A stretch of 64,000 nt of DNA from Escherichia coli (lineage in GTDB: Bacteria > Pseudomonadota > Gammaproteobacteria > Enterobacterales > Enterobacteriaceae). Shown here piece by piece: positions 47,981 through 48,764 of the stretch. The notes beneath the pieces are model-generated. The model was not told the origin of the DNA. It did no database searches and was given only the letters and a program-made list of their open reading frames with translations. The stretch lies in NCBI RefSeq assembly GCF_003790525.1, contig NZ_CP033635.1. The stretch is one strand, 5' to 3'. Within the stretch, counting starts at the first letter, position 1. Each line of letters begins with the position of its first letter. The position numbers and the translations under genes were made by a program.

Positions 47981-48475
47981 CTATTTAAGACATTCCTGCA
48001 AATCAGCCAATGTTGCCATCAGTATCATAGAATCGACAGGCGATGGTTCAAACCCCACTCGCAGATAAAACTCACGGGCCTGGTCTGATAACGCATGGAC
48101 CAACATTCCGCGAATACCAATGACTTCAGCCGCCTGTAGTACTCGTAGACCGGCATCTCTGACCATCGCACGACCGATGCCCTGACCCTGTAATGATTTA
48201 TCTATTGCCAGACGACCAAGTACTACAACAGGGATCGGTTCTGGCATATTTCGGCGAAATCGTCCTGTCGCGACATACGTTTCAACGGCGCTGGAAGCAA
48301 GCGAATAATATGCCAAAACGTTGCTATACGTATCACAGCTAACAAATGTACGTGATGCGCCGGCAAGCTGATTTTTTAGGGCTCTCTGCTTTAGCCAGTT
48401 ATCCATCGTTTCTACTCCCGAGCAAAAAGAGGTGAATTGATGCCTTGCCATGAGTGGCTCGGGGGCCTGAATCAT
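47981..48475 (-). CDS. GNAT-family acetyltransferase toxin (TacT/AtaT/ItaT-like type II toxin)
   Basis: ORF with GNAT acetyl-CoA motif [22 protein letters not shown] and conserved ...REFYLRVGF; preceded by RHH/DUF1778-like ORF; not at this position in K-12 as I recall it; start taken at [11 protein letters not shown] (track ORF begins 5 codons earlier at GTG). Confidence 0.8.
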
Positions 48476-48764
48476 TTTTTTTGCTCCCACGGCGCGGGTG
48501 TTTGCATGGTTTTGCGTAATGCAGCATTGGGCGCGGGGGCTGATCCAGACGATTCAAAAATAGCTGGTAATCATCAGAATCGATCCTGAAAATTCTCTGC
48601 TCAATGAGCGCCTCTTCAGCTGCGGCTCTGGCGGCCTCAAGGACAAATTCGGTGCGATTTTTTCCTCGGGCTTTAGCGGCCCGGTCAATAAGATCGCGTT
48701 CTGCGGGTTTTATGCGCAAGTTTAAAGATTCGCGCCTGGCTGGAATGTTATTGGCTGCTGGCAT
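48399..48764 (-). CDS. DUF1778 (RHH) antitoxin, TacA/AtaR-like; 3' part appears frameshifted so the reading frame overlaps the toxin start by about 75 nt
   Basis: N-terminus [59 protein letters not shown] matches DUF1778 pattern; after LDQPP the frame departs from an alternative frame that ends in a stop overlapping the toxin ATG. Confidence 0.65.

Follow-up and report, generated by a model that had tools for sequence, protein, structure and literature searches.

The acetyltransferase toxins homologous to the one described here arrest growth by acetylating aminoacyl-tRNA, and they are neutralized by their cognate antitoxins (PMC5959882; PMC9177977; PMC6698736). In Salmonella, the substitutions Y137F and R88G abolish TacT2 toxicity, and the PDB entries 5FVJ and 6G96 represent TacT and TacT3, respectively (PMC5959882). 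Entry 7AK7 is, by elimination, probably Salmonella TacA2–TacT2; an assignment to TacAT3 was rejected, since TacT3 is represented by 6G96. The KacA antitoxin of Klebsiella pneumoniae has a toxin-binding segment that consists of betaB (residues 52–56), alphaC (57–70), a PPAP linker (71–74) and alphaD (75–86), with alphaD binding at the acetyl-CoA site of the toxin (PMC6698736).

A pair of this type is found on the Escherichia coli chromosome as a two-gene, minus-strand insert between flgL (46933–47886, plus strand) and rne (48898–52071, minus strand). The stretch analysed is 64,000 nucleotides long and is termed the window. The pair forms an ordinary type II toxin–antitoxin (TA) operon of the chromosome and is a known member of the GNAT/DUF1778 (TacAT) family. 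Its antitoxin gene is, as read, frameshifted at a run of five C residues (C5). This frameshift most likely arose as an error of long-read sequencing or assembly at an error-prone homopolymer, in which case it is absent from the organism.

Layout of the locus and the two antitoxin frames

The insert is bounded upstream by the rne terminator hairpin (48856–48879, minus strand) and downstream by the flgL terminator, a GC-rich hairpin with a T run situated between flgL and the toxin stop (47928–47956, plus strand). A putative sigma-70-like promoter, recognized by its match to the consensus (ATGACA-18-TATAAT, 11/12), lies upstream of the antitoxin at 48796–48825 on the minus strand. The intact GNAT acetyltransferase toxin of 164 aa occupies 47981–48475 on the same strand, with its ATG at 48475 and its stop at 47981. 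An A8 run (AAAAAAAATGA; 48475–48482, minus strand) extends across the antitoxin stop and the toxin start, and the GGGAG that precedes it (48488–48484, minus strand) is a plausible Shine–Dalgarno sequence for the toxin. With the A8 run, the TA junction holds a second tract prone to slippage or error; one database variant (P0007) has C5 plus a 3-nt deletion at this run.

As read, the antitoxin open reading frame (48399–48764, minus strand) starts at the ATG at 48764, stops at 48401–48399 and encodes 121 aa, and it overlaps the toxin open reading frame by 77 nt. In the open reading frame listing, an upstream ATG at 48809 would lengthen it to 136 aa. The one-base loss lies in the C5 homopolymer of the coding strand, which is seen as G5 at 48535–48539 on the plus strand and is flanked there by GC and CT. 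Addition of one C yields an antitoxin of 97 aa that belongs to the DUF1778/TacA family (48472–48764, minus strand) and whose TGA (48474–48472) overlaps the toxin ATG as ATGA. The two frames part at residue 78 (A to R), from where 20 native residues are swapped for 44 foreign ones. The original prediction had described a −1 frameshift at the C5 run and a coupled ATGA junction in the corrected frame. All the elements that it described are present in the sequence, and the 294-nt coding sequence of related genomes has the same 4-nt overlap; therefore the ATGA pattern is not due to chance. Thus an antitoxin-first, ATGA-coupled bicistron is absent as read, but is present when one C is restored and in the intact relatives.

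Profile searches distinguish the two frames. The corrected antitoxin matches Pfam TacA1 (PF08681) over residues 14–88 with 92.6 bits (E = 1.5e-26), whereas the as-read form matches over residues 14–79 with 78.5 bits (E = 3.9e-22), the match ending at the frameshift; restoring the C adds 14 bits. Both the TacA1 (DUF1778) domain and an N-terminal ribbon-helix-helix (RHH), the latter as a weak RHH_1 match, are found in the antitoxin. Neither form of the antitoxin, nor the toxin, had a match in NCBIfam. Among PDB sequences, the corrected antitoxin matches 7AK7_C, 7ZG6, 7F37, 5ZGN and 6AJM. Since the conservation of the coding sequence, chain C of 7AK7 and Pfam TacA1 agree, it is the corrected frame that encodes the real DUF1778/TacA-family protein. 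A comparison of the antitoxin C-terminus with its homologues, which had been proposed as a check, accordingly finds the corrected frame to be the conserved one by both 7AK7 chain C and TacA1.

By alignment to KacA, the PPAP linker corresponds to antitoxin residues 76–79. The C-terminal segment (betaB-alphaC-linker-alphaD) is complete in the corrected frame and incomplete as read, residues 78–97, i.e. half of the PPAP linker and alphaD, being replaced. On this mapping, the RHH domain, betaB and alphaC would survive a frameshift at residue 78, alphaD alone being replaced. The earlier suggestion that the altered tail belongs to the region contacting the toxin is therefore narrowed: homology to KacA points to replacement of the last helix alone, and not of the whole toxin-binding region.

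The QGQGIG acetyl-CoA motif is present in the toxin, as are Tyr137 and Arg88 (TacT2 numbering); the toxin is intact, as the original prediction had supposed in view of the motif and the conserved tyrosine. Acetyltransf_7, _10 and _1 are its Pfam matches, so that a GNAT fold, an acetyl-CoA motif and a catalytic tyrosine are all found. Its PDB matches include 7AK7 chain A (E = 7.7e-76), 5FVJ (TacT), 5XUN and 6AJM; KacT and AtaT are among the homologues matched. The toxin looks active, because Tyr137 and Arg88, both needed for TacT2 toxicity, are present.

A mechanism for the pair can be proposed by homology. The N-terminal ribbon-helix-helix of the antitoxin would repress the operon, and the C-terminal betaB-alphaC-PPAP-alphaD segment would wrap the toxin and block its acetyl-CoA site. 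The toxin, coupled in translation through the ATGA, would acetylate aminoacyl-tRNA once freed.

The C run in complete genomes and clonal relatives

Of 5,426 complete E. coli genomes, 685 carry the TA locus at the rne–flgL site. An intact 294-nt antitoxin coding sequence with the 4-nt ATGA overlap is found in 683 of these 685, so the comparison of related genomes suggested at the outset also upholds the corrected frame. The product is annotated as a DUF1778 or TacA-family protein (WP_001110446.1 or WP_001110447.1). An 81-mer spanning C5 has an exact match in only two of the 685 genomes, in the RefSeq pseudogenes C6950_RS03220 (strain 2015C-4136CT1) and G6000_RS09405 (strain E686). Both are identical to the window over the 81-mer, adjoin an intact WP_000613626.1 toxin and are labelled by PGAP as "DUF1778 domain-containing protein, frameshifted"; they lie on haplotypes other than that of the window and thus are independent occurrences. 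A second frameshifted core gene is found within 50 kb in both strains, flgC in E686 and ptsG in 2015C-4136CT1; in strain 702/18, no frameshifted core gene is found in 64 kb. Equivalent one-base deletions at fabD G5 and mdoH G6 gave no exact matches in complete RefSeq genomes, compared with two of 685 here, in a control of low power, the native mdoH 82-mer being common to only 49 genomes.

The tract itself is not conserved: strain 2014C-3075 (contig L001) and a few other genomes have CCTCCC in place of CCCCCC at the equivalent of 48535–48540, a synonymous interruption. An origin of the window's C5 from an ancestral CCTCCC by loss of the T was considered, 2014C-3075 being the best 1-kb match, and was rejected because the run is C6 in the clone to which the window belongs.

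A 24-kb part of the window is matched at ∼100% by about 24 complete genomes, SMS-3-5, 702/18 and XH992 among them. The three clonal genomes examined all have C6 (G6 on the plus strand) and encode WP_001110446.1, to which the corrected antitoxin of the window is identical. The toxin DNA, too, is the same in the window and in its clonal relatives, whose annotation lists the product as WP_000613626.1. Over ∼62 kb, three substitutions separate the window from the clone, and the missing base is the sole indel. C5 is private to the window's assembly and is absent from the clonal relatives checked directly.

Three changes are unique to the window's assembly, at 42525 (flgH G21A), 44793 (flgJ L175F) and 48535 (antitoxin), and they cluster within 6 kb of the 62-kb comparison (p about 0.03). 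The exact FlgH and FlgJ proteins of the window have no match in a collection of 15 billion proteins. The clustered changes could be either locally poor consensus or real, private mutations of the flagellar region. The remaining substitution, 5340 G>A (ghrA G174S), is real and marks a sub-clade, because the same change is carried by sister contigs L033 and L034 (GCA_034460245.1; SRR25608274, seven samples). It converts CCTGG to CCTAG; the altered G lies opposite the cytosine methylated by Dcm, a position that is a classic deamination hot spot. None of the contigs with the frameshifted product belongs to the same size class as the 209-kb sister contig, and the sister is therefore implied to carry the intact gene.

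Two further candidates for anomalies were discarded. Five differences from 702/18 were at one point taken as private to the window, but two of them (1416 and 1424) proved to be changes of 702/18 alone. The RNase E of the window has 1057 aa, compared with 1061 aa in most E. coli, owing to a 12-nt in-frame deletion at 49133 in the C-terminal half of the protein. The same 3174-nt rne is found in 702/18, SMS-3-5 and EC332, and all members of the clone share the deletion; it is an in-frame, lineage-wide allele and not a second error.

Distribution of C5 and explanations for the missing base

The as-read 121-aa protein and its A9T variant account for roughly 110 entries of a public collection, and 20 contigs were audited against the window. 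The C5 carriers among these 20 contigs form at least six unrelated haplotype groups; the apparent loss of this base has therefore occurred repeatedly. In 14 of the 20, conserved genes up to 10 kb away contain further single-base deletions. An identical G5-to-G4 deletion in fabD (57709–57713) recurs in several lineages (L012, L020, L021, L025 and L027), rne is split in L010, L012, L025 and L026, and flgL has a deletion at 47212, in an A6 run, in L012, L014, L016 and L017. fabD is an essential gene, and the fabD and rne frameshifts in C5 contigs cannot be real. The fabD G5 run and position 47212 of flgL are recurrent false-frameshift sites in their own right; flgL of RefSeq EC332 is annotated as frameshifted at 47341. 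In the C5 contigs, CCWGG (Dcm) motifs are also sites of deletions, and GGCC motifs are sites of miscalls. Such a pattern of errors at CCWGG, GGCC and homopolymers is a known signature of long-read basecalling, and the error signatures together with the contig sizes point to a long-read platform for the C5 assemblies.

One contig of the window's own clone (L012; SRR18681743) has C5 and six such deletions. It is without the private SNPs of the window and therefore represents an independent occurrence of C5. All of its substitutions and several of its deletions fall on GGCC motifs (39199, 40816, 41000, 45964, 51169, 55072 and 58424), which suggests interference with basecalling by a GGCC-specific DNA methyltransferase of the clone. 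Six C5 contigs (L011, L013, L015, L018, L024 and L028) have no other suspicious indel in 7–20 kb. Three of them (L011, L013 and L015) lie on one common haplotype, where a real C5 sub-clade is conceivable.

An intact A9T antitoxin served as a matched control and proved decisive. The 25 contigs read for it all collapse into one place and have every neighbour intact, whereas the 24 C5 contigs read fall into 10 different places. The size classes of the contigs differ similarly. Contigs of 0.2–1 Mb are typical of short-read drafts, and they account for 248 of 488 intact entries (51%) vs none of 110 C5 entries (Fisher p = 6e-30). C5 in this respect does not behave as a real allele, which would be expected among draft-sized contigs in proportion. 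Contigs under 20 kb hold 39 of 488 intact entries (8%) vs 86 of 110 C5 entries (78%), and those over 1 Mb hold two of 488 vs four of 110, a class in which C5 is enriched.

Sequencing or assembly error is favoured because C5 tracks error-prone assemblies, because the conserved frame needs C6 and because the clonal relatives have C6. A C6 homopolymer adjoining a GATC site would have been read or assembled as C5, a single-base deletion typical of the platform, and the antitoxin of the cell would be the normal 97-aa protein. The toxin is unmutated and retains its key residues, unlike what would be expected had the antitoxin truly been lost. Against an artefact, the window has no other indel in ∼62 kb and thus is not a grossly error-prone assembly; the six clean C5 contigs, three of them on one haplotype, also count against it, and homopolymers are real mutational hot spots as well.

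A real, very recent and private −1 deletion in the C6 tract of the window's isolate is considered unlikely. The resulting antitoxin would keep the RHH, betaB and alphaC, lose alphaD and gain a basic tail of 44 residues. In its favour, the otherwise clean sequence contains no indel but this one in 62 kb, slippage in homopolymers is a common real mutation, and the 5340 G>A change common to L033 and L034 attests to genuine divergence of the window. In addition, the alphaC segment, which makes hydrophobic contacts in KacA–KacT, would by homology be retained. A real deletion is nevertheless difficult to reconcile with the absence of C5 from the clonal relatives and of the frameshifted product from the size class of the 209-kb sister, with the association of C5 with error-prone assemblies and its lack in draft-sized contigs, and with a toxin that shows no compensating change, while the clustering of the unique changes fits a locally poor consensus equally well. 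The original prediction had offered a real deletion and a homopolymer sequencing error as alternatives; the latter is favoured, and the former is unsupported in that C5 tracks error-prone assemblies.

It is highly improbable that the C6 tract is a genuine slippage hot spot that recurrently gives rise to heritable alphaD-less antitoxins in several lineages (e.g. L011, L013 and L015). If this were true, the threshold for activation of TacT-type toxins and for persistence would be lowered. The least credible reading is that the tract is a phase-variable contingency switch or programmed frameshift site, by which cells would alternate between the full antitoxin and the alphaD-less form and so free the toxin in a subpopulation as bet-hedging for persistence: the same one-base loss is indeed seen in at least six lineages and the tract coincides with the linker that leads into the helix blocking the toxin, but six Cs are short where typical contingency tracts have eight or more, the tract is interrupted synonymously in some genomes, the Pfam family profile offers no homologues of the out-of-frame tail (the TacA1 match ends at residue 79), C5 is found in 0 of 110 entries among draft-sized contigs and travels with the impossible fabD and rne frameshifts, and a growth-arrested variant would not be expected to become the consensus of a cultured isolate. 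Accordingly, the two marks of a contingency locus, genuine tracts of both lengths and a conserved alternative product, are absent.

Significance and comparison with known systems

With sequencing error as the preferred reading, the C6 run adjoining GATC would be a recurrent false-frameshift site in long-read E. coli assemblies, two RefSeq genomes included. A functional antitoxin is there turned into an apparent pseudogene, which annotators and TA surveys should not count as antitoxin loss. The frameshift has already been flagged by PGAP elsewhere and is most likely not biological. The weakened neutralization and the persister or growth phenotypes that had been anticipated find no support, the allele being private and tracking error-prone assemblies and the toxin being unchanged.

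Should the deletion be real, neutralization would probably be weakened but not abolished, and it would be retained if binding by alphaC suffices. Translation of antitoxin and toxin would be uncoupled, and ribosomes reading through the toxin start may lower toxin translation. The locus would then offer a TacA-family antitoxin naturally truncated at alphaD next to an intact toxin. It would be of modest use as a natural experiment on which part of the antitoxin neutralization needs, but would be no new type of system.

With respect to KacA–KacT (PDB 5ZGN; PMC6698736), the pair has the same architecture of RHH, betaB, alphaC, PPAP linker and alphaD, and the QPPAPN motif of the antitoxin aligns directly with KacA. 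This system is the more distant of the two (antitoxin E = 1.7e-07, toxin E = 4e-20), and the contacts are mapped onto the window's pair by alignment only. The likeness to 7AK7 is much closer. The corrected antitoxin aligns end to end with chain C (E = 1.4e-45), C-terminal tail included, the toxin aligns over its full length (E = 7.7e-76), and the operon is likewise antitoxin-first. The window's pair differs from 7AK7 in being the E. coli orthologue situated at rne–flgL and, as read, in an antitoxin without the last 20 residues.
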